Of a DNA stretch of 32,000 nucleotides, positions 1 through 24,541 are shown piece after piece; position 1 is the stretch's first letter, and each line of letters opens with the position of its first letter. Under the pieces are notes generated by a model. It saw only the letters and a list, made by a program, of their open reading frames with translations. It was not told the origin of the DNA and ran no database searches. The DNA lies in contig DASSTJ010000190.1 in assembly GCA_035707965.1 (NCBI GenBank), forward strand, positions 1 to 32,000. Direction: 5' to 3'. The position numbers were made by a program, and so were the translations under genes. The DNA comes from Actinomycetales bacterium (GTDB taxonomy: Bacteria; Actinomycetota; Actinomycetes; Actinomycetales; Angustibacteraceae).

Positions 1-1905
1 CTGCGCGACGTCCTGCTCGGCCTGGTGACGGCGGCGGACGAGCCGATCTCCGGCGGCAGGCACAAGGTCTTCGGTAGCGCCGACCTCGCGGTGATCCCGC
101 AGACCTCGACGATCGCGTCCCACCTGCCGCGTGCCGTCGGCGTGGCCTTCGCGATCGCCCGGTCGCGCAAGCTCGGCGTCCCGTGCGCGTGGCCACGTGA
201 CGCGCTCGTGGTCGCGTCGCTCGGTGACGCCTCGATGAACCACTCCACGGCGGTCGGTGCGCTGAACACCGCGGCCTGGTGCGTCTACCAGGGCCTGCCG
301 ATGCCGCTGCTCGTCGTGTGCGAGGACAACGGGCTGGGGATCAGCGTGCCCACCCCGACCGGCTGGGTGGCGGCGCAGAACGTCGGCCGGCCGGGCTTCC
401 GGTACCTCGCCGCGGACGGTGCGGACCCGGCGTCCGTCTACGACACGGCGTTCGAGGCGGCCGATCACGTGCGTCGACGGCGGACGCCCGCGCTGCTGCA
501 CCTGTCGACCGTACGGTTCGGCGGACACGCCGGGTCGGACGTCGAGACCGCCTACCGCACGAGCGCCCAGATCGCGGCGGACGTCGAGCGCGATCCCGTG
601 CTGGGCACCGCTCGGCTGCTCGTGGGCTGCGGCGCGCTGACGGTCACCGAGCTCGTCGAGCGCTGGCGGGCGGTCGAGCGGCGCGTCAGGGACGTCGCCG
701 CGCAGGCGCTGTCGTCCCGTGCGCTCGAGACGCGCGCTGAGGTCGTCGCGCCCCTGGCCCCGCGCGGGCTACGTCCTGCCGCCGAAGCAGCGGCGTCCCC
801 TTCCGGAACTTGGTTGCCTTTGTGTACGGCAAACGGCCCCATTGGCGTACACAAAGGCAACCAAGTTCCCTCACCAGAGCCTGTGGTCGAGCGGCTCACT
901 CTGGCGCAGTCGGTGAACCGGGCCCTCGGCGAGCTGCTGGAGCAGCACCCCGAGCTGCTCGTCTTCGGCGAGGACGTCGCACGCAAGGGCGGCGTGTACG
1001 GAGTGACCCGCGGGCTGCAGAAGCGGTTCGGTGCCGCGCGGGTGTTCGACACGCTGCTGGACGAGCAGGCGATCCTGGGGCTGGCTCTGGGCGCGGGCGT
1101 CTCCGGCCTGCTCCCGGTCCCGGAGATCCAGTACCTGGCATACCTGCACAACGCGGAGGACCAGCTGCGCGGCGAGGCCGCGAGCCTGCAGTTCTTCTCC
1201 CGCGGGCAGTTCCGCAACCCGATGGTGGTGCGCATCGCGGGGTACGCGTACCAGCGCGGCTTCGGCGGGCACTTCCACAACGACAACGGGATCGCCGTAC
1301 TTCGTGACGTGCCCGGGCTCGTCGTCGCGTCGCCGTCCCGCCCGGACGACGCTGCCGCGATGCTGCGCACCTGCGTGGCTTCGGCGTCCGTCGACGGCTC
1401 GGTCTGCGCGTTCGTCGAACCAATCGCGCTCTACCACGAGCGCGACCTGCTGGCCGAGGGCGACGACGGGTGGCTGGCACCCTTCCCCCGCTCGGACGGA
1501 GACGTGCCGATCGGTTCTGGACGCACCTACGGTGACGGCGCCGACCTCACGGTCGTCACCTTCGGCAACGGGGTTCGGCTGGCGCTACGCGTGGCGGAAC
1601 GCTTGCGACGCAAGGGCATCGGTGTGCGCGTCCTCGACCTGCGCTGGCTGGCACCGCTGCCCGTGGACGACCTGCTGCGCGAGGCGTCCGCCGCCGGGCG
1701 GGTGCTCGTCGTCGACGAGACCCGGCACGCGGGTGGGGTGGGTGAGGGCGTCGTCACCGCGCTGGTCGAAGGCGGCTTCCGCGGTGGCGTCCGACGCGTG
1801 GCTGCGGCCGACTCGTTCGTGCCGCTCGGCGCCGCCGCGAACCTCGTTCTCGTGCAGGAGGACGAGGTGGAGCGCGCCGCCGTCCGGCTCGTCGACGGCG
1901 GCTGA
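1..1905 (+). CDS. TPP-dependent 2-oxo acid dehydrogenase E1 component, fused alpha+beta chains (5' end outside window)
   Basis: Frame 1 is open from base 1 (LRDVLLGLV...), so the GTG at 25 listed in the ORF track is unlikely to be the true start. The N-part has an E1-alpha TPP-binding signature (GDASMNHS...LLVVCEDNGLGIS). From about LTLAQSVNRALGELLEQHPELLVFGEDV...EQAILGLALGAG onward it looks like E1-beta (transketolase pyrimidine-binding and C-terminal domains, DLRWLAPLP). Stop at 1903-1905. Confidence 0.85.
   Translation: MRDVLLGLVTAADEPISGGRHKVFGSADLAVIPQTSTIASHLPRAVGVAFAIARSRKLGVPCAWPRDALVVASLGDASMNHSTAVGALNTAAWCVYQGLPMPLLVVCEDNGLGISVPTPTGWVAAQNVGRPGFRYLAADGADPASVYDTAFEAADHVRRRRTPALLHLSTVRFGGHAGSDVETAYRTSAQIAADVERDPVLGTARLLVGCGALTVTELVERWRAVERRVRDVAAQALSSRALETRAEVVAPLAPRGLRPAAEAAASPSGTWLPLCTANGPIGVHKGNQVPSPEPVVERLTLAQSVNRALGELLEQHPELLVFGEDVARKGGVYGVTRGLQKRFGAARVFDTLLDEQAILGLALGAGVSGLLPVPEIQYLAYLHNAEDQLRGEAASLQFFSRGQFRNPMVVRIAGYAYQRGFGGHFHNDNGIAVLRDVPGLVVASPSRPDDAAAMLRTCVASASVDGSVCAFVEPIALYHERDLLAEGDDGWLAPFPRSDGDVPIGSGRTYGDGADLTVVTFGNGVRLALRVAERLRRKGIGVRVLDLRWLAPLPVDDLLREASAAGRVLVVDETRHAGGVGEGVVTALVEGGFRGGVRRVAAADSFVPLGAAANLVLVQEDEVERAAVRLVDGG
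805..869. repeat. Perfect 24-bp inverted repeat with 17-nt loop (65 bp), AT-rich relative to surroundings, embedded in frame in the E1 alpha/beta linker
   Basis: Left arm 805-828 is GGAACTTGGTTGCCTTTGTGTACG. Right arm 846-869 is CGTACACAAAGGCAACCAAGTTCC, its exact reverse complement. Loop 829-845 is GCAAACGGCCCCATTGG. My hand count gives about 35/65 G+C versus visibly above 70% in the flanks. It encodes GTWLPLCTANGPIGVHKGNQVP on the + strand and a near-mirror peptide on the - strand. Confidence 0.95.
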
Positions 1906-10747: not shown

Positions 10748-10837
10748 TCCTCGGGCAGCGCCGCGCTGAGCGCCCGGAGCGGAATGCCCTGCGGCTCCCG
10801 CACCGTTGAACGACCACGACACCAGTGAGGAGCGAGC

Positions 10838-11476
10838 ATGGCCAGGATCGTCGTCATCGGGGGCACCGGTTACACCGGTGGGAACATCGTCGCTGAGGCC
10901 GCCGCGCGTGGGCACGACGTCGTGTCGGTCAGCCGGACGGCGCCGAAGCAGGCGGTCCCCGGCGTGCGGTACGAGCTTGGCGACGTCGAGCGGGTGGCCG
11001 CCACGGCCGTCGCGGACGCCGACGTCGTGGTGGCGGCGTTGTCGCCGCGGGGGCCGATGGCGGGACGACTCGTCGACACGTACTCGAAGCTCGCTCGGCT
11101 CGCCGCGGACAACGGTGCCCGTTACCTGCAGGTCGGCGGGTTCAGCTCCCTGCGCCCGGCCCCTGGCGCGCCGCGTTTCGTCGAGGGCGACGTGCCGGAG
11201 GAGTTCCGCGAGGAGGCCCGTGAGGGCGAGGCGACCCGCGCCATGCTCGCCGACACGGCACCCGAGGGCCTGGACTGGCTGTTCCTCAGCCCGGCAGGGG
11301 CGTACGGGTCGTTCGCGCCCGGTGAGCGCACGGGCACGTACCGCGTGGGCGGCGAGATCGCCCTCTTCGACGCCGAGGGTTCCTCTGCCCTGTCCGGGGC
11401 CGACTTCGCCATCGCGGTCGTCGACGAGATCGAGGCACCCGCTCACCACCGGGAGCACATCGGGATCGCCTACTGA
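10838..11476 (+). CDS. NAD(P)H-binding protein, NmrA / atypical SDR-like
   Basis: MARIVVIGGTGYTGGNIVAEAAARGHDVVSVSR is a Rossmann GxxGxxG N-terminus. Size and C-terminal pattern are typical of NAD(P)H-binding (BVR-B/NmrA-like) proteins. GAGGAG RBS. Confidence 0.75.
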   Translation: MARIVVIGGTGYTGGNIVAEAAARGHDVVSVSRTAPKQAVPGVRYELGDVERVAATAVADADVVVAALSPRGPMAGRLVDTYSKLARLAADNGARYLQVGGFSSLRPAPGAPRFVEGDVPEEFREEAREGEATRAMLADTAPEGLDWLFLSPAGAYGSFAPGERTGTYRVGGEIALFDAEGSSALSGADFAIAVVDEIEAPAHHREHIGIAY

Positions 11477-12548: not shown

Positions 12549-14108
12549 TCAGCTCACCTCCCGGGGCAGCGTGAATCGCACGTCCTCGTCGACGACCTGG
12601 GTCTCGCGCACCCGCACCGGCCCGAGACCGGACAGGCAGCGCACGAGGTCGTCGACGAGACGTGAGGGTGCGGAGGCACCGGCGGTGATGCCGACGCGGC
12701 GTGCACCGGCGAGCCAGCGCAGGTCGACATCCGAGGCGTCGTCGACGAGGTAGGACGGGGCGCCCTCGGCCTCGGCGACCTCGGCGAGCCGGTGCGAGTT
12801 GGAGGAGTTCTGCGACCCCAGGACCAGGACCAGGTCGCTCTCGCGCGCGATTGCGCGAACGGCCAGCTGCCGATTCGTGGTCGCGTAGCAGATGTCGTCC
12901 TTGCGTGGAGCCGACAGCGCGGGAAACCGTTGCCGCAGAACGGCTGCCGTCTGCTCTGCCTCGTCCACCGCCAGGGTTGTCTGCATCACGTAGGACACGT
13001 GCTCGGGGTCACGGACGTCGACCCGGCTGGCGGCGTCGGGATCCGCGACCACGACCACGTTGCTCGGTGCCTCACCTCGGGTACCCACGACCTCCTCGTG
13101 CTCCTCGTGGCCGATGAGGAAGACGGTGCTGTCCCGCGACGCGAACCGCCGTACCTCGTGGTGCACCTTGGCGACGAGAGGGCAGGTGGCGTCGACGACC
13201 TGGAGGCGGCGTTCCACGGCCTGCTGCCGTACCGACGGCGCGACGCCGTGCGCGGCCAGCACGGCGACGCTGCCGTAGGGCACCTCGTCGAGCTCGGTGA
13301 CGAAGACGGCTCCTCTGCGCTCCAGCTCTGAGACCACGTGGCGGTTGTGGACGATCTGGCGGCGCACGTACACCGGTGCACCGTGCCGCTCGAGGGCGCG
13401 CTCGACGATCTCGATGGCCCGCTCGACTCCTGCGCAGAACGACCGCGGCGCGGCGAGAAGGACCTCGCGCTCGCCGGTCGCGGCCGCCCACGCCTCGAGC
13501 GCCGGTGCGGCGGAGCGGAGGGAGCGCAGGGCGCCGACGCCGCGCCAGGCGGTGCCCGGCCGCAGCAGCGGCAGGCTCGGGGTGTCGACGACGGCGCGGA
13601 CGGCGACGGTCTGGCCGGAGGGGGCGCGCGCAGTCAGGAACGCCGACTCGGTGTCGACCGCAAGGGCTTGCTCTGCGAGGCGTTCGCGCAGCTCACGTCG
13701 TTCGTGGTGAGCACGGACCACGTGGTCGCTGGAGTAGACCGGCCCGACGTGCACGGACAGTCCCAGGCGCCGCAGCGCCCCGGCGACGAGGGGTGCGGCG
13801 TAGGAGGGGTAGCGGGCACCGCGCGTCCGCACCTCGTCGGAGACCACGAGGTCGCCGGGTCGGAGGTCGTCGCTCAGCGCGCCGGCCACCCCGGCGACGA
13901 GCAGCGGGCGGTGGACGACCGGGTGCTCGTCGTCGTCGAGGTTGCCGCCCGGGGACGTGGTGATCGCCGGTCGGGAGAAAGCCAGGTGCGGTGGCACGTG
14001 TCCGGTCGGGCCCGGGCCCGTCCGCACGTGCGCGGCGCGCAGCCTCCCCCGCAGCGCCAGGCCCTCGGCGAGCAGCGGCGTGCAGATCAGCCCCAGCGGT
14101 TCAGCCAT
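12549..14108 (-). CDS. hpnG-ispH: Fusion of a hopanoid-associated phosphorylase (HpnG-like, PNP/UDP family) with 4-hydroxy-3-methylbut-2-enyl diphosphate reductase (IspH/LytB)
   Basis: The N-part, about 200 aa (LLVAGVAGALSDDLRPGDLVVSDEV...ALAVDTESAFL), is nucleoside-phosphorylase/HpnG-like. From EVLLAAPRSFCAGVERAIEIVERAL...VYVRRQIVHN...DATCPLVAKVH...VMQTTL...ICYATTNRQ...VLGSQNSSNSHRL it is canonical IspH with its three Cys. There is no stop and no in-frame ATG/GTG/TTG in the roughly 35 codons I read just upstream of the IspH domain. ATG 14108 overlaps the shc stop by 8 nt. Confidence 0.8.
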   Translation of the reverse strand: MAEPLGLICTPLLAEGLALRGRLRAAHVRTGPGPTGHVPPHLAFSRPAITTSPGGNLDDDEHPVVHRPLLVAGVAGALSDDLRPGDLVVSDEVRTRGARYPSYAAPLVAGALRRLGLSVHVGPVYSSDHVVRAHHERRELRERLAEQALAVDTESAFLTARAPSGQTVAVRAVVDTPSLPLLRPGTAWRGVGALRSLRSAAPALEAWAAATGEREVLLAAPRSFCAGVERAIEIVERALERHGAPVYVRRQIVHNRHVVSELERRGAVFVTELDEVPYGSVAVLAAHGVAPSVRQQAVERRLQVVDATCPLVAKVHHEVRRFASRDSTVFLIGHEEHEEVVGTRGEAPSNVVVVADPDAASRVDVRDPEHVSYVMQTTLAVDEAEQTAAVLRQRFPALSAPRKDDICYATTNRQLAVRAIARESDLVLVLGSQNSSNSHRLAEVAEAEGAPSYLVDDASDVDLRWLAGARRVGITAGASAPSRLVDDLVRCLSGLGPVRVRETQVVDEDVRFTLPREVS

Positions 14109-16095
14109 CTCGCACCGCCCGCGGACTCCGAGCCGTCAGGTAGCGCCCCAACGCCCACGTCGGGAACACGAGCCGGTAGAGGTGGTAGTTGATGTAGAAG
14201 TCACCGGGGAAGCCCGTCCCGGTGAACAGGTCCTCCGACCAGGTGCCGGTGTCGAGCTGCGCCTGCACCAGCCAGCCGATGCCGCGACGCACCGCGTCGG
14301 ACTCCCCGGCCGGACCCGCCTGCCCTGCCGCGAGCAGCGCGAGCAGCGCCCACGCGGTCTGCGAGGCGGTCGACTCGCCGCGGCCCGCCCACTCCAGGTC
14401 GCGGTAGGAGCGGAGGTCCTCCCCCCAGCCGCCGTCCGCGTTCTGGTGGTCCTCGAGCCACCAGACGGCCCGTCGCACCGCCTGCGAGCCCGTCGACACA
14501 CCGGCGTCGACGAGGGCGGGCACGACCGCGCCGGTCCCGTAGACGTAGTTCGCTCCCCACCGTCCGAACCACGACCCGTCCGTCTCCTGGTGCTCGAGCA
14601 GCCACTGAACACCTCGTCTGCACCGCTCGTCGTCTCGGCGGCCGACCGCGCACAGCATCTCGACGACGTGGGCGGTCACGTCGGCGGACGGCGGGTCGAT
14701 GACGGCGCCGAAGTCGCAGAACGGCAGGCGGGTCGTCAGCGTGCGCGTGTTGTCGGCGTCGAAGGCGCCCCAGCCGCCGTCCCGAGACTGCATGCCTGCG
14801 GTCCACGTGACGCCGCGGTGCAGGGCGGTCTGCAACCGGGCCGGGTCAGGGTGCTCGACGCGCTGGAGGGCCAGAACGATCTCCGCCGTGTCGTCGGTGT
14901 CGGGGTAGCCGTCGTTGGCGAACTCGAAGGCCCAGCCGCCCGGCGGCACACCCGGCCGCCGCACCTGCCAGTCACCGCCGACCTCGATCTGCTCGTCCAG
15001 CAGCCAGTCGGCCGCACGCACCACGTCGGGGTCGTCTGGCGCCACGCCGGCGTCGAGCAGGGCGGTGAGCGCGAGAGCGGTGTCCCAGACCGGGGACTGG
15101 CATGCCTCCAACCGGCGGACGATGCCGTCCGGCGTCTGCTCGTTCACCACGAACCCCTCGAGGCCGTCGATGCCGGCGCGGACGGCCGGATGGTCGAGCG
15201 GGTAGCCCATGAGGTGCAGCGCGAGCAGCGAGTACACCCAGGGTGGCTGGATACCGCCCCAGCCGCCGTCCGCCTCCTGCCGCGCGAGCACCCACTCGGT
15301 CGCACGGCGCATCGCCAAGCGGCGCAACGGCTTCAGCGGGTGGTGCCCGTAGCGGTGCAGCACGCGGTCGAGCATGCCGAAGGCGCCTTCGACGGTCCAT
15401 GACCCGCCGGTGGCCGCGTCCGCGGTGCCGGCCGGACGGCGTCCCGGCGGCGGACCGTGCAACGGATCGATCGCGAACGGCAGCGGTCGCACGGGCCGAA
15501 GCGCACGCACCACGGTGAGCGGGACGATCGTCTGGCGGGCCCAGCAGCCCCAGTCGTAGACGTTCAACGGCACCCAGGGGGGGAGGAAGATCATCTCCGG
15601 TGGGAGCTCCGGCAGGTCGTCCCAGGGCCAGAGCCCGAAGAGCGCCAACCAGATCCGGGTGAAGACCCTGCTCCGCTCGACACCGCCGGCAGACCGGACG
15701 AAGTCGGCAGCACGTAGAAGGTGGGGAGCGTCCTCTCGGTCACCGGCGAGGCGCAGCGCCACCCAGGCCTCGACCGTCGTGGACAGGTCGCCCGGGCCGC
15801 CGTAGAACGTCGCCCACGTGCCGTCGTCCCGCTGCTGCGAACGGATCCACCGTGCCGCTGCCTCGGTCGTGTCCGGCTGCGAGATGCCCAGGAAGGCCCG
15901 CAGCAGAAGGTCTTCGGCGTCCATCGTGACGTTCGTCGCCAGCTCGCCCTTCCACCAGCCGCCCTCGTGCTGCAGCGAGCGCAGGTGCGCGGTGGCGGCG
16001 TCGACGCTGCGGCGGACGTCTTCGAGGCTGGGCCGGACGGCGGTGTCCGCGCGTGGGCTGACGGTCGTGCCGTGGGTGCGCGTTCTGGTGGTCAT
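14101..16095 (-). CDS. shc: Squalene-hopene cyclase
   Basis: 664 aa with repeated QW-type motifs (GGWWKGE, DGGWGGIQ, GGWAFEF, DGGWGAF, DGSWFGRWG, DGGWGEDL) and the catalytic DxDD motif (GYPDTDDTAEIVLAL). ATG 16095 forms an ATGA overlap with the upstream stop. Confidence 0.95.
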   Translation of the reverse strand: MTTRTRTHGTTVSPRADTAVRPSLEDVRRSVDAATAHLRSLQHEGGWWKGELATNVTMDAEDLLLRAFLGISQPDTTEAAARWIRSQQRDDGTWATFYGGPGDLSTTVEAWVALRLAGDREDAPHLLRAADFVRSAGGVERSRVFTRIWLALFGLWPWDDLPELPPEMIFLPPWVPLNVYDWGCWARQTIVPLTVVRALRPVRPLPFAIDPLHGPPPGRRPAGTADAATGGSWTVEGAFGMLDRVLHRYGHHPLKPLRRLAMRRATEWVLARQEADGGWGGIQPPWVYSLLALHLMGYPLDHPAVRAGIDGLEGFVVNEQTPDGIVRRLEACQSPVWDTALALTALLDAGVAPDDPDVVRAADWLLDEQIEVGGDWQVRRPGVPPGGWAFEFANDGYPDTDDTAEIVLALQRVEHPDPARLQTALHRGVTWTAGMQSRDGGWGAFDADNTRTLTTRLPFCDFGAVIDPPSADVTAHVVEMLCAVGRRDDERCRRGVQWLLEHQETDGSWFGRWGANYVYGTGAVVPALVDAGVSTGSQAVRRAVWWLEDHQNADGGWGEDLRSYRDLEWAGRGESTASQTAWALLALLAAGQAGPAGESDAVRRGIGWLVQAQLDTGTWSEDLFTGTGFPGDFYINYHLYRLVFPTWALGRYLTARSPRAVRDG

Positions 16096-20443: not shown

Positions 20444-21673
20444 ATGGCGGTGCAGACGCTGCGCGCGAGCTCACCGGGCGGGCCGGCGGAGGACGCGCTG
20501 GACGGCTTCACGGCGGCGCTGGGCGACCGGCTTCCCGAGCTGCTGCGGGAGGTCGGTGACCTCCTGCGCGACGACTGGCCGGACTACGCGCGGTTCCTGG
20601 ACGAGAGCCGCCCGGCAGTGGCCGAGGCCGGACGGATGTTCGTCCAACGCCTCGTCGCGGTCGCCCGGCTCAGACTGGTGCCGTCCGCCCCGCCGCTGTC
20701 CACGGCGACCGCCAGGGTTGCTGAGGTGGACGCCGTCTTCGACCAGATCGGACGCATGCAGTGGCAGCGCGGGCACGAGCTGACCGAGCTGCTGACGGCC
20801 TACCAGGTGGGCGCCCAGGCGGCCTGGCGTCACGTCTCCGACACCGCCCTCGACCTCGGGCTCCCACCGGGGGTCCTGTCGGTGCTCGCGGAGGCCGTCT
20901 TCGTCTTCGTCAACCAGCTGTCCTCCGCGTCCGCCCACGGCTACGTGCTCGAGCAGTCCGAGTCGAGCGCTGCGCGGGAGCGGCTGCGGCAGGAGCTGTC
21001 CGACCTGCTGCTGTCGGACCGCACCGACACGGCCACCGTGCAGATCGCCGCGTCGCGCGCCGGCTGGACGTTGCCGGGCCGCGCCGCCGTGATCCTCGTG
21101 GACCCGAGCGACCCGCAGGCGCGGGCCGTCGTCGAGCGGCTCGACTCCCGCTGCCTCCCGGTACGCCGGGAGCGACTCTACGGAGCGATCGTCCCCGATC
21201 CGTCGGACCGGCGGCTCCGCGACCGGGCCGCCCGTGCGCTCACTGGCGCGCACGCCGTCGTGGGGCACCCTGTCCCGCTGGAGCTGCTCCCCGCCAGCAC
21301 CCAGGTCGCCCAGATCGCCCTGGACCTGTGCTCGCGCGGCCTCCTCGACGGCGACCCCGTGTTCGCGAGCGACCACATCGACGTGATCATCGCTCACCGT
21401 GACGAACGGCTCATGGCGGTGCTGCGTAGCCAGGTCCTGCAGCCGCTCGACACGCTGTCACCGGCGCGCCGGCAGCAGCTCACGGAGACGCTCGCGGCGT
21501 GGCTGCGGACGATGGGGGACCGGCGTGCGGTCGCGGAGGAGCTGCACATCCACCCGCAGACCGTCCGCTACCGGGTCGGCCAGCTGCGGTCGATCCTCGG
21601 CGGCGCACTCGACTCGCCGGAGTCGCGCGCCAAGATGTTCCTGGCGCTCTGCTTCGGATCGGTTGCGTCCTGA
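20444..21673 (+). CDS. PucR/CdaR-family transcriptional regulator (C-terminal HTH)
   Basis: The C-terminal LTETLAAWLRTMGDRRAVAEELHIHPQTVRYRVGQLRSILG is the PucR-type HTH. It is transcribed divergently from the hopanoid operon. Confidence 0.8.
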   Translation: MAVQTLRASSPGGPAEDALDGFTAALGDRLPELLREVGDLLRDDWPDYARFLDESRPAVAEAGRMFVQRLVAVARLRLVPSAPPLSTATARVAEVDAVFDQIGRMQWQRGHELTELLTAYQVGAQAAWRHVSDTALDLGLPPGVLSVLAEAVFVFVNQLSSASAHGYVLEQSESSAARERLRQELSDLLLSDRTDTATVQIAASRAGWTLPGRAAVILVDPSDPQARAVVERLDSRCLPVRRERLYGAIVPDPSDRRLRDRAARALTGAHAVVGHPVPLELLPASTQVAQIALDLCSRGLLDGDPVFASDHIDVIIAHRDERLMAVLRSQVLQPLDTLSPARRQQLTETLAAWLRTMGDRRAVAEELHIHPQTVRYRVGQLRSILGGALDSPESRAKMFLALCFGSVAS

Positions 21674-23748
21674 GCGCTCGGGACCGCGGTGAGACCGACG
21701 GTCGGCGCGGGGCGAGCCCCCGAGACGTCCGGCAGCTCGACCGAGGGTGGCCGCTCGTCCAGCTCGTCCAGCACCGCGGCCATCGCCGTGGAGAGCCGGC
21801 CGGCGTCCAGCGTCTCGCCGCGGGTCACGAGCCCGACACCGAGCTGGTCACCCCAGCTCAGGGCGCCCACCGCGAGAGGAGTGCCGGGAGCGAGCGGGAT
21901 GATCGGCACGACGTCCTCGATCGGCACGCCCACGAGGTCCAGCTGCTGCCGCGGCCCTGGCATGTTCGAGACGATCGCCTGCAGGAACGCCTGGCTGTAG
22001 ACCGTGCGCGCGAACCAGCGCAGGCCCGGCTCCGGCGTCAGCTCCAGCACCTTCGCCATCACGAAGCGGGACGCCAAGGCGCGCGTGGGGGTGTGCAGCG
22101 GCCCGGTGCGCCGTCGGACCTCGGTGAGCAGGTCGGCGGGCACGTCGATGTCGACCGGCAGATCCACCATGACGGCGGCCGTGACGTTGCCCTCGGCCGC
22201 GCTGTCGGGCTGGCGCACCATGAGAGGCACGGCCACGCGCAGCCGTCCCTCGAGCCGCGCGACGAACGAGGGCTGCTCCCGTTGCAGGGCAGCGACCACG
22301 AGGCACAGCAGCAGGTCGGTGACGCGTGCCTCGTGGGCGCGGGCGACGTCCCGGACGCGGTCCAGGGGAAGCCACGAGCAGCAGAAGTCCGTCGTAGCGT
22401 CGTGCGGCGGCGGGACGCGCGCGGCGGGGCGGCCGTCCGTCGCTAGCTGGGCCAGCCCGACCACCGTCGCGGCCGCCTGCTTCAGCGCAGGCACCTCACG
22501 TCGTCCGTCCGGCACGAGGTCGATCCGTGGTCGGAAGAGCTGCACGGCCTGCGCCACCGTGCCGATGCCGTCGGCCACGCAGTGGTGCACCAGGAGCAGC
22601 ATCGTGGAGCGCCCCACCTCAGGAGCGCGCACCAGGACGATCCGCCACATCGGCCGGTCGCGCGGCAGCAGCCGGGACGCCAGGTCGCCGACGACCCGGC
22701 CCACGGCCGCGACCGCCTCGTCCCTGGTGGCACCCGGCACGCTCAGCTCGGTCACGTGCCACGACCAGTCCAGCGGTCCGGCGTCCACCCAGCGCGGCCG
22801 GCGCCACCGTGTGCCGCCGTCGAGGCGTTGCGTGAACCGGGGCAGGCGCCCCAGCTCGCTGCGGACGAGGTCACGGACCTCGTCGACGGAGGGCCCGCCA
22901 CCCGGGGCCAGCACGACGACACCGCCCACGTGCTGCGGTGCCCGCGGTGCCTCCGCGTGCAGGAAGAACGCGTCGGTGGCGGGCACGCGTCCGCGGCGCC
23001 CGGGGTCGCACCAGCGGTCGACCACCGCGACGCTCACCCACACGAACGGGACGGCGGCGAGCGCGTCGACCAGGTAGTGGTTCGCCGTCGCGAGGATGAC
23101 GAGGACGGTGACGGCGACGTGGACGGCGCTGACGACCTGGACGCCGAGACCGCGCGACTGCCGCGCCAGCACGACCGACACCCACAGCGCCCAGGCGACG
23201 TGGAGCGACGGCATCGCAGCCAGCTGGTTGGCGTGCGTGACGAGCGGCATGCCCCACGAGCCGATGGTGCCGCCGCGGGTCACCGTGTCGACGAGACCGA
23301 GGTCGGTCATCAGGCGAGGCGGCGTCATGGGGAACAGCCAGAAGCAGGTGATCCCCAGCAGGTTCAGCAGGACGAACGAGCTGCGGGCCGGGCGGTAGTC
23401 GGCCGGAGCGCGCACGTAGAGCCAGGTCAGCAGGGCCAGTGCGCTGACGACGTACGTGAAGGCGTACTCGTAGTTCGCGATCGTCGAGAGCACCTGGTGC
23501 GGCGCGAGCCACGCGTTGAGCGGGCGCTCGACGTCCAGGTGCAGTGACCGCTGCAGGTCGATGACGAGCTGTGCGTGGCGGTCGGCGGCTGCTCGTCGCT
23601 CCGGGCCCCCTTGGGAGTCGACGAGCAGGTAGAGGCCGAAGACCACGAGGCCGCCGGCCAGCTCCCGCCACAGCAGCGGCCGGACGCCGGACCCGGAGCC
23701 ACGGGTGGCGTGAGGTGGGGACGCGGTGGCCGGACCGCTCACGGTCAC
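21568..23748 (-). CDS. Fusion of an N-terminal PAP2-superfamily membrane domain (PAP2_3/IPC-synthase-like) with a wax ester synthase/diacylglycerol acyltransferase (WS/DGAT)
   Basis: The N-part is polytopic, with FPMTPPRL, NQLAAMPSLHVAWALW and ATANHYLVDALAA (the H...H..D motif set of PAP2_3-type enzymes). From DAFFLHAEAPRAPQHVGGV it is WS/DGAT, with the catalytic HHCVADGIG and the C-terminal SNMPGPRQQLDLVGVPIEDVVPIIPLAPG block. GTG 23748 (AGGA upstream) or GTG 23742. The 779-aa version overlaps the upstream gene. Confidence 0.8.
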   Translation of the reverse strand: MTVSGPATASPPHATRGSGSGVRPLLWRELAGGLVVFGLYLLVDSQGGPERRAAADRHAQLVIDLQRSLHLDVERPLNAWLAPHQVLSTIANYEYAFTYVVSALALLTWLYVRAPADYRPARSSFVLLNLLGITCFWLFPMTPPRLMTDLGLVDTVTRGGTIGSWGMPLVTHANQLAAMPSLHVAWALWVSVVLARQSRGLGVQVVSAVHVAVTVLVILATANHYLVDALAAVPFVWVSVAVVDRWCDPGRRGRVPATDAFFLHAEAPRAPQHVGGVVVLAPGGGPSVDEVRDLVRSELGRLPRFTQRLDGGTRWRRPRWVDAGPLDWSWHVTELSVPGATRDEAVAAVGRVVGDLASRLLPRDRPMWRIVLVRAPEVGRSTMLLLVHHCVADGIGTVAQAVQLFRPRIDLVPDGRREVPALKQAAATVVGLAQLATDGRPAARVPPPHDATTDFCCSWLPLDRVRDVARAHEARVTDLLLCLVVAALQREQPSFVARLEGRLRVAVPLMVRQPDSAAEGNVTAAVMVDLPVDIDVPADLLTEVRRRTGPLHTPTRALASRFVMAKVLELTPEPGLRWFARTVYSQAFLQAIVSNMPGPRQQLDLVGVPIEDVVPIIPLAPGTPLAVGALSWGDQLGVGLVTRGETLDAGRLSTAMAAVLDELDERPPSVELPDVSGARPAPTVGLTAVPSAQDATDPKQSARNILARDSGESSAPPRIDRSWPTR

Positions 23749-23827
23749 CGTCCTAGCACGAGCGCGCCCTTCGCACAGGTGGTCACGCTCGTGCACGTCT
23801 CGGCGAAGGTGCCGCGTGCGCTTCGGC

Positions 23828-24541
23828 TCAGACGCGGCTGCGCGACAGGCTGAGGTGGACGCCCGGCACGCGGCCCAGCCGGCTCCAGCCCCAGTAGGCG
23901 CACGCAACCACGGTGGCCACCGTGAGCAGGCTGCTGAGCATGCCTCGCGACATCAGCCCGGCGTCGAGGCCCCAGTGCAGGAAGCCGAGGCTCATGCCGG
24001 CGTCCAGCACCCGAGAGAAACCCCAGAGCAGGGCCACCTGCGCGAACATGCGGCGCACCCGGCGGTCGGCGAAGAGGTGGCGGGGGAGCGCCACGAAGTC
24101 CTGGGCGAGCCGCATCGTGACGGGGCGGCCGATGGCGACGCTGCCGAGGAAGAGCAGCGCCATGAAGAGCGACCCGGCCACCGGCTGCAGCAGGTAGACG
24201 TAGACGCTCGAGAAGGCCATGGCGATCGACGTGCGGCCCACGAGCATGCCGACCGCGAGCAGCAGCGTGCTGGGCACGCGCCTGCCGGTCGCCCACCGCA
24301 GCGAGAGGGCAGCGGCGCACCAGCTCAGCACGGCGACCATTCCCCAGAACGAGCCGACGGTGCGCACGCACGCCAGCAGCAGGAGCGTCGGCACGACGAC
24401 CGTCTCGAGCAGCATCCGCACGCCGTGCAGGGCGGCTGGACGCAGGGTCGCGAGGTCGAGCACGAAGGGTTCGTCGACGTCACCGCGACCGAGGTGCGAG
24501 GGGTGGCTCAGCGCCGGGGGCGGAACGGACATACCAACCAC
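23828..24541 (-). CDS. Integral membrane protein of unknown function (about six predicted TM helices)
   Basis: Six hydrophobic stretches (LLETVVVPTLLLLACV, WGMVAVLSWCAAAL, LLLAVGMLVGRTSIAMAF, VYLLQPVAGSLFMALLFLGSVAI, FAQVALLWGFSRVL, LSSLLTVATVVACAYWGW). AGGAGG lies about 10 nt upstream of GTG 24541. Same strand as the flanking SDR and PAP2::WS/DGAT genes. Confidence 0.6.
   Translation of the reverse strand: MVGMSVPPPALSHPSHLGRGDVDEPFVLDLATLRPAALHGVRMLLETVVVPTLLLLACVRTVGSFWGMVAVLSWCAAALSLRWATGRRVPSTLLLAVGMLVGRTSIAMAFSSVYVYLLQPVAGSLFMALLFLGSVAIGRPVTMRLAQDFVALPRHLFADRRVRRMFAQVALLWGFSRVLDAGMSLGFLHWGLDAGLMSRGMLSSLLTVATVVACAYWGWSRLGRVPGVHLSLSRSRV

Follow-up and report, generated by a model that had tools for sequence, protein, structure and literature searches.

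A palindromic repeat of a dispersed REP/MITE-like family lies in frame in the linker of a fused E1 alpha/beta gene

In Rickettsia, palindromic repeats are found in frame inside enzyme genes, where they are known as Rickettsia palindromic elements (RPEs; Ogata et al. 2000, as summarised in PMC10969869). For repetitive extragenic palindromic (REP) sequences, Di Nocera et al. 2013 (PMC3733652) describe some GTAG/CGTC REP dimers that are located within open reading frames (ORFs) and code for 20-30 aa; the word 'actinobacteria' is absent from the survey's main text. Here we describe a 65-bp palindromic element at positions 805-869 of a 32-kb stretch of DNA (hereafter the window), which lies in frame in the linker of a fused E1 alpha/beta gene. 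The element belongs to a previously undescribed family of dispersed palindromic repeats from uncultured high-G+C soil bacteria. We think it probable that it is an old insertion of a member of this family, which resembles REPs and transposable elements of the miniature inverted-repeat type (MITEs), that it has been carried along as a neutral passenger and that its arms were made symmetrical again in the lineage of the window.

The element has no assigned strand and consists of arm A (GGAACTTGGTTGCCTTTGTGTACG, 805-828), a loop (GCAAACGGCCCCATTGG, 829-845) and arm B (CGTACACAAAGGCAACCAAGTTCC, 846-869). Direct reading agrees with the initial annotation that the two 24-nt arms are exact complements separated by 17 nt. 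A repeat search lengthens the stem to 28 nt (805-832/842-869, 96%, 9 nt between), with the outer 4 nt on each side of the loop joining the stem with one G-G mismatch. No other short-range inverted repeat of the window comes close to it. An arm query with up to three mismatches found only its own two arms in the window and had no matches in 100 shuffles. Neither this search nor a hidden Markov model (HMM) of the family detected a second copy in the 32 kb, as the initial annotation had also reported. When folded as RNA, the element reaches -48.5 kcal/mol compared to -21.0 +/- 3.1 for dinucleotide shuffles (z = -8.75). The halves of this copy are not self-complementary, and the long hairpin is its sole fold. 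The G+C content, which had been put at about 54% inside DNA of more than 70%, was measured as 0.538 in the 65-nt block 801-865, compared to 0.69-0.80 in the element-free blocks of the first 2 kb. The element contains stop codons in none of the six frames, whereas the common type of the family has TAG stops in one frame on one or both strands.

The host gene (1-1905, plus strand) encodes a fused E1 alpha/beta of a thiamine pyrophosphate-dependent 2-oxoacid dehydrogenase. It is truncated at its 5' end by the start of the window, with 634 of about 740 aa present, and is the only long ORF of the region with a high G+C content at third codon positions (GC3). Homologues number in the thousands; they are 720-765 aa long, combine PF00676, PF02779 and PF02780 and carry the JGI name '2-oxoisovalerate dehydrogenase E1 component'. 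The nearest named homologues are proteins of Nocardioidaceae/Marmoricola metagenome-assembled genomes, with 71-73% identity. An alignment of 18 homologues, together with a DNA comparison, delimits a hypervariable alpha-beta linker (751-912, plus strand) that extends from the conserved PLAPR (APLAPR) to LTLAQS, and alignment columns ~410-460 vary in both length and sequence. The element falls in this one hypervariable stretch, between the E1_dh (alpha) and the Transket_pyr/Transketolase_C (beta) domains, so that domain and alignment evidence both place it where the initial annotation had. The reading frame of the E1 ORF is left intact and the ORF translation contains the added peptide of about 22 aa, GTWLPLCTANGPIGVHKGNQVP; the element itself encodes GTWLPLCTANGPIGVHKGNQV(P). 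According to a hand count, 10 of the 22 codons end in A or T, compared to a GC3 of 0.89 for the host gene. In an AlphaFold model of poor quality (predicted local distance difference test, pLDDT, of 54), the lowest pLDDT values fall on residues 241-302, and the model shows no secondary structure for residues 265-300, which weakly supports a disordered alpha-beta linker. A possible origin of the alpha/beta fusion by read-through of a once intergenic element was discarded, as the distant, element-free homologues are all already fused.

To find further copies, we scanned metagenome contigs with a two-arm pattern and then searched with a family model and with peptides. The two-arm scan returned 30 loci, about 27 of which are genuine and share consensus bases beyond what the pattern requires; we estimated from the specificity of the pattern that 2-3 matches would be expected by chance. 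After all searches, the family comprises about 33 distinct unrelated loci besides E1, nearly all of them intergenic, with about 20 loci on separate contigs of one metagenome (Ga0070696). The initial annotation had proposed a miniature palindromic mobile element, or its footprint, that is tolerated in the linker. This proposal is supported by the copy count and by the insertion seen in the alignment of E1 orthologues described below.

The consensus of the family is C-GTGCACTTCG-(GCTA/TAGC)-CGAGGTGTAC-G, a G+C-rich spacer of about 15 nt and C-GTGCACTTCG-(GCTA/TAGC)-CGAAGTGCAC-G; for testing membership we used GTGCACTTCG-N4-CGARGTGYAC, about 15 nt, and GTGCACTTCG-N4-CGAAGTGCAC. An example of what we call the type-I consensus is GTGCACTTCGGCTACGA, and a flip variant is GTGCACTTCGTAGCCGA. 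The typical member is about 70 bp long and contains two, sometimes three, self-palindromic units of 24 nt at a 42-nt period, where the units measure 24-26 nt and have a 10-bp stem and a 4-nt centre. Such a doublet can fold either into two small hairpins or into a single long one that has an internal loop; the predicted ensembles contain both forms. The copy in the window is a derived form, and its orthologues L003, L064 and L006 keep the two-unit architecture (L and P numbers denote the loci and proteins compared here).

Variation within the family concerns both the number and the orientation of units. Arrays of three units with the 42-nt period, similar to bacterial interspersed mosaic elements (BIMEs), occur at L045 311-419, L055 2990-3098 and L059 765-875, and gene callers turn arrays into spurious ORFs of 43-58 aa with repeated VHFGYEV(Y/H) (P0121, P0122 and P0127). 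At L038 672-741, L040 7602-7671, L042 3938-4007 and L058 9111-9180, the central hexamers of both units are inverted (GGCTAC vs GTAGCC), together with the spacer of about 15 nt. In these flipped variants, the two G.T-forming positions of half-site 2 (CGAGGTGTAC) remain on one strand. Heterogeneity of this 'flip/flop'-like kind may reflect copying through a hairpin intermediate. The G.T-forming positions were also considered as a mark of the transcribed strand; a hand tally of co-directional contexts gave six agreements and four disagreements, and the idea was dropped.

The family HMM (nhmmer) matches the window solely at 804-869 (E = 2.8e-11). The copy from the window is among the 27 seed sequences of this model; the orthologous E1 copies are not among the seeds and score higher, at about 1e-13 to 1e-16 (for instance, L004 7e-16, L005 6e-14 and L003 3e-13). 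The HMM further detected copies at L040 6442-6509, L054 325-392, L054 11183-11303 and L066 11464-11530. L066 is a 20-kb stretch of a contig with core genes in an actinobacterial-type order (thrS...pdxS/pdxT-yebC-ruvCAB-yajC-secDF-apt) and contains two copies; by extrapolation, the family may have hundreds of copies in this organism.

A literature search with the consensus strings returned only unrelated papers, Rfam gave nothing above threshold and only miRNA-like hairpin matches (26 bits vs 68), and neither the type-I consensus nor the element of the window matched the plasmids in PLSDB. Among 5.8 billion proteins, there was no near-identical match to any of the six-frame translations of the element, and a type-I peptide profile retrieved just seven JGI 'hypothetical proteins' of 43-58 aa, which are spurious ORFs over intergenic copies. 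A scan of genome contigs from 185,579 species with the E1-type arm pattern CCTTYGTGTACG yielded 25 single-arm matches in unrelated phyla, none of them palindromic, which we attribute to chance; as this pattern excludes the majority type-I consensus, the scan is uninformative on the presence of the family in sequenced genomes. One match of a degenerate single-arm pattern to a viral contig (L008 3871-3891, from IMG/VR) has no palindromic partner and was likewise judged to be a chance match. It encodes RVHKGDQV at the N-terminus of a 486-aa helicase-like ORF on the minus strand, where the element has GVHKGNQV.

The copies of the family normally sit close to the ends of genes. For 25 copies, both neighbouring genes could be resolved: 9 lie between convergent, 13 between co-directional and 3 between divergent genes, such that 22 of the 25 have a gene 3' end on at least one side. 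From stop codon to element, the median distance is about 20 nt, and more than half of the copies lie within 2-26 nt. Some copies appeared to be spanned by ORFs; each of these candidates for a further in-frame genic copy is an N-terminal stop-to-stop extension upstream of a real start, for instance of GlnA, FlhA, a HAD hydrolase or ADH. Thus, E1 is the sole verified in-frame genic site among the about 34 loci. On both strands, the sequence that flanks the copies is rich in C to the left and in G to the right, and the palindrome fades outward. Beside one intergenic copy, at L034 125-200, a second G+C-rich hairpin (cggacgtgcaaacggcgtcc...ggcggacgccgt) follows directly after the element and precedes the convergent rpsT; it is probably the rpsT terminator.

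Next, we compared the E1 gene to its orthologues. The 22 aa are an insertion with respect to most fused E1 proteins, and the closest orthologues share the palindromic segment. Six orthologues (P0002-P0006 and P0019), whose proteins are 78-83% identical, have a homologous insert at the same position of the linker (e.g. PSGTSYPLCTPEGPSGVHLGDEV), whereas P0007-P0015 (76-78% identical) and all more distant homologues are without it. At the DNA level, the orthologous inserts are recognisable family elements (e.g. L064, CGCACTTCGGATACGACGTGTACGCC...GGCGTACACCAAGGCTACGAAGTGCG) that are palindromic though imperfect (e.g. L004, GGCACTTCGTATCCTTTGTGTACGCC...GGCGTACACCTTGGCGACGAAGTGCA): 12-20 of 26 positions pair between the arms in orthologues, compared to 25 of 26 in the window. 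In four copies, the element starts 54-55 nt past the PLAPR codons, and thus the junction is shared among the orthologues. In the closest relative of the window, the palindrome (L003 1690-1790) reaches about 16 nt further on each side (CCCGTCGCC...GGCGACGGG); its fold has -59.6 kcal/mol (z = -6.3), with the centre of the stem unpaired.

A bootstrapped neighbour-joining tree of the E1 proteins, based on 527 gap-free columns, groups the window with L003/P0002 (99%) and P0006 with P0019 (100%). In a second clade (97%), P0005, which carries the insert, pairs with the empty P0008 (89%), and P0004, which also carries it, joins the empty P0007/9/15 (100%). As empty orthologues are nested among insert-bearing ones, one old insertion followed by at least two deletions would be the simplest history.

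In the five orthologous copies that are better preserved, codon positions 1, 2 and 3 show the same identity, and codon differences comprise 89 nonsynonymous and 28 synonymous ones, a roughly neutral ratio. We therefore conclude that the inserted peptide is not kept by amino-acid-level selection. Element identity within this set is 63-91%, and divergence is near or somewhat below that of flanking silent sites (third-position identity of 63-76%). In pairwise comparisons, the element block is free of indels and usually better conserved than the neighbouring blocks of the linker. The long stem is not conserved among the orthologues: in a formal count over the alignment, 74.5% of the cells are paired, and 4-6 of the seven sequences lack pairing in the stem's central third.

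How, then, did the copy in the window become a perfect palindrome? The A arms of L003 and L064 are identical at 24 of 24 positions, with the form ACTTCG-GATACGAC-GTGTACG. Arm A of the window matches them at only 14 of 24 positions, whereas it matches the reverse complement of their arm B at 18-19 of 24. Since the A arms of L003 and L064 are identical across a deeper split, the change is specific to the lineage of the window. Arm B of the window is 18-19/24 identical to arm B of L003 and L064 and appears to be vertically inherited, and the loop centre ACGGC is common to the window and the orthologous copies L064, L006 and L001. All five lineage-specific substitutions of arm B are mirrored in arm A; for instance, the unit centre GGCTAC became GGCAAC in arm B and is mirrored as GTTGCC in arm A. 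According to the formal count, most stem pairs that changed on both sides involve the sequence of the window. A rewriting of arm A as the complement of arm B would explain both its ten differences and most of the 'compensatory' pairs.

We lean towards intrastrand template switching on the hairpin as the most likely step. Mutation by template switching, through which quasipalindromes become perfect, is well established (PMC7202029, PMC3820800). Our case resembles it in that one arm would have been rewritten as the exact complement of the other, with clustered 'compensatory' changes arising in a single event. Most knowledge of the mechanism comes from hotspots in reporters of E. coli and yeast; in contrast, the switch proposed here concerns a 24-nt tract in a natural repeat element and is deduced from comparative data.

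Taken together, the following history would account for these observations. Copies of the family are normally found in short gaps between genes, shortly past stop codons, and one copy would have inserted in frame into the disordered linker of an E1 gene that was already fused. We date this landing to the ancestor of a small clade of uncultured high-G+C bacteria, which we infer to be actinobacteria because their nearest named E1 homologues belong to Nocardioidaceae. The inserted copy would then have been tolerated as a neutral passenger, with its arms decaying in most descendants and the element being deleted at least twice. In the lineage of the window, an exact complement of arm B would have taken the place of arm A; the simplest route would be intrastrand template switching, i.e. 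quasipalindrome correction. The family would itself be mobile.

Comparing the element to the described systems, we find that it shares features with several of them. As for RPEs, a small palindromic repeat sits within the reading frame of a housekeeping gene for an enzyme, where it contributes a short peptide at a surface or linker position that permits it; descendants inherit the repeat, which decays slowly, and intergenic copies exist as well. However, the host is unrelated (a high-G+C soil bacterium vs an AT-rich obligate intracellular alphaproteobacterium), homology of sequence is not expected, and the likeness is one of function only. Furthermore, RPEs are about 100-150 bp long compared to about 65-70 bp here, nearly half of the RPEs from three families are intragenic (PMC10969869) compared to 1 of about 34 loci here, and no conserved peptide is maintained in our case.

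The anatomy of the family is nearer to that of REPs. REP units are 20-40-nt imperfect palindromes that are dispersed as doublets or small clusters, as in BIMEs (PMC3733652), and they too are located no more than about 20 nt from the 3' ends of genes that are convergent or co-directional (PMC3733652, Figures 5-6). In contrast to the GTAG/CGTC REPs (PMC3733652), there is no terminal tag: the termini are CGTGCAC/GTGCACG, and GTAG occurs only in the centre of the TAGC variant. In addition, judged by the central hexamer, the units are mostly direct and not head-to-head as in REPs and BIMEs, with truly inverted units in L035, L044, L034 and the window. The REPINs that are associated with REP-associated tyrosine transposases (RAYTs; Bertels and Rainey 2011; PMC3337134, PMC3116915) are likewise palindromic doublets with a short spacer in which a long hairpin is the repeated unit, and their subfamily 'master sequences' vary between lineages. 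The copy in the window folds similarly into a single hairpin of 24-28 bp, and in type-I copies the long hairpin competes with two small ones. Unlike in REPIN-RAYT systems, the long perfect hairpin is here the minority form. No RAYT (Y1 transposase) lies beside the copies examined.

MITEs (Correia, ERIC, Nezha; PMC10969869) are also short, non-coding and multi-copy, with terminal inverted repeats and possible in-frame fusions. The element differs from them in being far shorter than most and in the lack of target-site duplications in 32 copies; a related autonomous insertion sequence with the same ends was not seen at the loci examined. Of the RPE- or MITE-like label given in the initial annotation, the in-frame palindromic insertion thus holds, whereas the comparison to MITEs holds only in part for lack of a target-site duplication. 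As the family has no GTAG/CGTC tag, mostly direct units, no target duplication and presumably no relation to RPEs, we file it outside the named families, as a REP/MITE-like family of its own with an RPE-like in-frame insertion.

Several observations weigh against this history. In about 100 kb from the E1-bearing clade (the window, L001-L007, L064 and L065), we found no further copy of the family, and any present-day activity of the family in the genome of the window is therefore putative. Signs of transposition are likewise missing: there is no target-site duplication in the flanks of the 32 copies, no transposase near the copies examined or in the window, no Y1_Tnp among the 27 flanking and window ORFs scanned, and no filled/empty polymorphism was seen within a population. 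A single gain requires at least two clean losses. The arms of L003 and L064 are identical at 46 of 48 positions although only 65% of flanking third codon positions are (P = 0.003 at gene-wide identity), and the whole elements are identical at 59 of 65 positions compared to 30-43 of 65, with indels, in the adjoining blocks of the linker. This likeness, which selection on the peptide does not explain, suggests some constraint at the DNA level or homogenisation and not pure neutrality. Finally, the outer-arm states of the window, GAACTTGG/CCAAGTTC, recur in the unrelated intergenic copy of L034, which lies next to rpsT and comes from another metagenome. One internal conversion would not predict such sharing, which hints instead that a subfamily exists and that another copy was the source of a conversion or re-insertion.

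This last observation leads to the main alternative, which we regard as a tentative possibility: family and site would be the same and old, with the copy in the window recently replaced from another genomic copy of a subfamily GAACTTGG...CCAAGTTC, through ectopic gene conversion or through excision and a new insertion into what remained. The copy at L034, which lies 6 nt past a stop codon, is itself a perfect palindrome with the same derived termini (GAACTTGG vs GCACTTCG in the family), and by a hand count from the alignment its arm A matches that of the window at 19 of 24 positions, as near as any orthologous arm. Homogenisation by other copies would also explain why the elements of L003 and L064 are closer than their flanking silent sites. 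However, the loop centre and arm B of the window match the orthologous E1 copies at the level expected from vertical descent, and the position of the junction is identical to that of the orthologues. The about 100 kb of clade DNA offers no donor copy, and the protein searches show no near-identical translation. A broader alternative is that the element is not passive, either because an actinobacterial enzyme keeps the family uniform by sequence-specific, hairpin-based copying or conversion that leaves 'flip/flop'-like inversions of the unit centres and reaches the E1 copy, or because hairpin and rare codons have been co-opted as a translational pause or RNase III site between the alpha and beta domains; we consider this unlikely. 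Quite unlikely, in our view, is the narrower version in which the hairpin is domesticated in E1, as a site of RNase III action or pausing through which translation or folding of alpha and beta becomes uncoupled or as a protein-binding DNA site, and is kept by compensatory substitutions. Nine stem pairs changed on both sides, and the paired fraction exceeds that of slid controls (26.5-44.9%). The stem is very stable, the codons that end in A or T form a rare-codon cluster between the two domains, and in most pairwise comparisons the element block shows higher conservation and fewer indels than the adjoining linker. Yet the orthologues have lost much of the pairing, above all in the central third of the stem, the element was lost by deletion in at least two lineages and substitutions are evenly spread over codon positions. 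Moreover, nearly all double changes belong to the single sequence of the window, for which one templating event suffices, and relatedness alone may inflate the shuffle statistics. A functional RNA or DNA hairpin, which the initial annotation had offered as an RNase, pause or protein-binding site, is thus not supported as a conserved feature.

The remaining explanations concern the palindrome itself. Inverted repeats are trouble spots for graph assemblers, and the sequence of the window comes from a single contig that was seen once (P0001: one member, one contig). The true sequence might therefore be an imperfect quasipalindrome, one arm of which was mirrored by the assembler or polisher. This is very unlikely: a homologous palindromic insert is present at the same place in six independent assemblies, the element joins both flanks of the gene correctly with the frame kept, and a graph error through the hairpin would normally invert the flank too. 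A sequencing adapter or linker was discarded, as the element is not known to resemble any adapter sequence and the homologous inserts come from six independent assemblies. That an ordinary linker is palindromic by chance has nothing in its favour except the general variability of linkers, and its probability is practically negligible; the absence of arm matches in the shuffles, the trough in G+C and the about 33 homologous copies at unrelated loci rule it out. Weighing these points, we retain the old insertion with later re-symmetrised arms as the probable explanation.

The rest of the window is ordinary chromosome, with pxpA/BC, nuo subunits, a hopanoid cluster and regulators. Two unusual fusions are encoded on the minus strand: a 794-aa ORF (21571-23952) joins a PAP2_3 phosphatase domain to a WS/DGAT acyltransferase, and another ORF (12552-14135) joins LytB/IspH to a PNP_UDP_1 (HpnG-like) domain. 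The latter adjoins squalene-hopene cyclase and squalene synthase in the hopanoid cluster, which is syntenic with GCA_053525735.1 (L001). An 18-nt inverted repeat (11539-11556/11600-11617, 94% complementary, 43 nt between the arms) lies just downstream of a NAD_binding_10 gene (10829-11473) and is possibly a terminator.

Our results add a so far undescribed REP/MITE-like repeat family, and the family model could aid the annotation of intergenic repeats and of spurious small ORFs (VHFGYEVY...) in soil metagenomes. The E1 copy shows where the linker of the fused E1 permits an insertion and is a clean example outside of Rickettsia of a palindromic repeat that lies in frame in an enzyme gene over a long evolutionary time. 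The seven orthologous copies, together with the empty sites, form a small natural experiment on the decay, deletion and re-perfection of an insert. The proposed hairpin-templated re-perfection calls for caution, as compensatory changes that cluster in a hairpin need not prove selection. If the element were instead active or co-opted, it would represent a REPIN-like system in a phylum without described ones, and one that extends into coding sequence.

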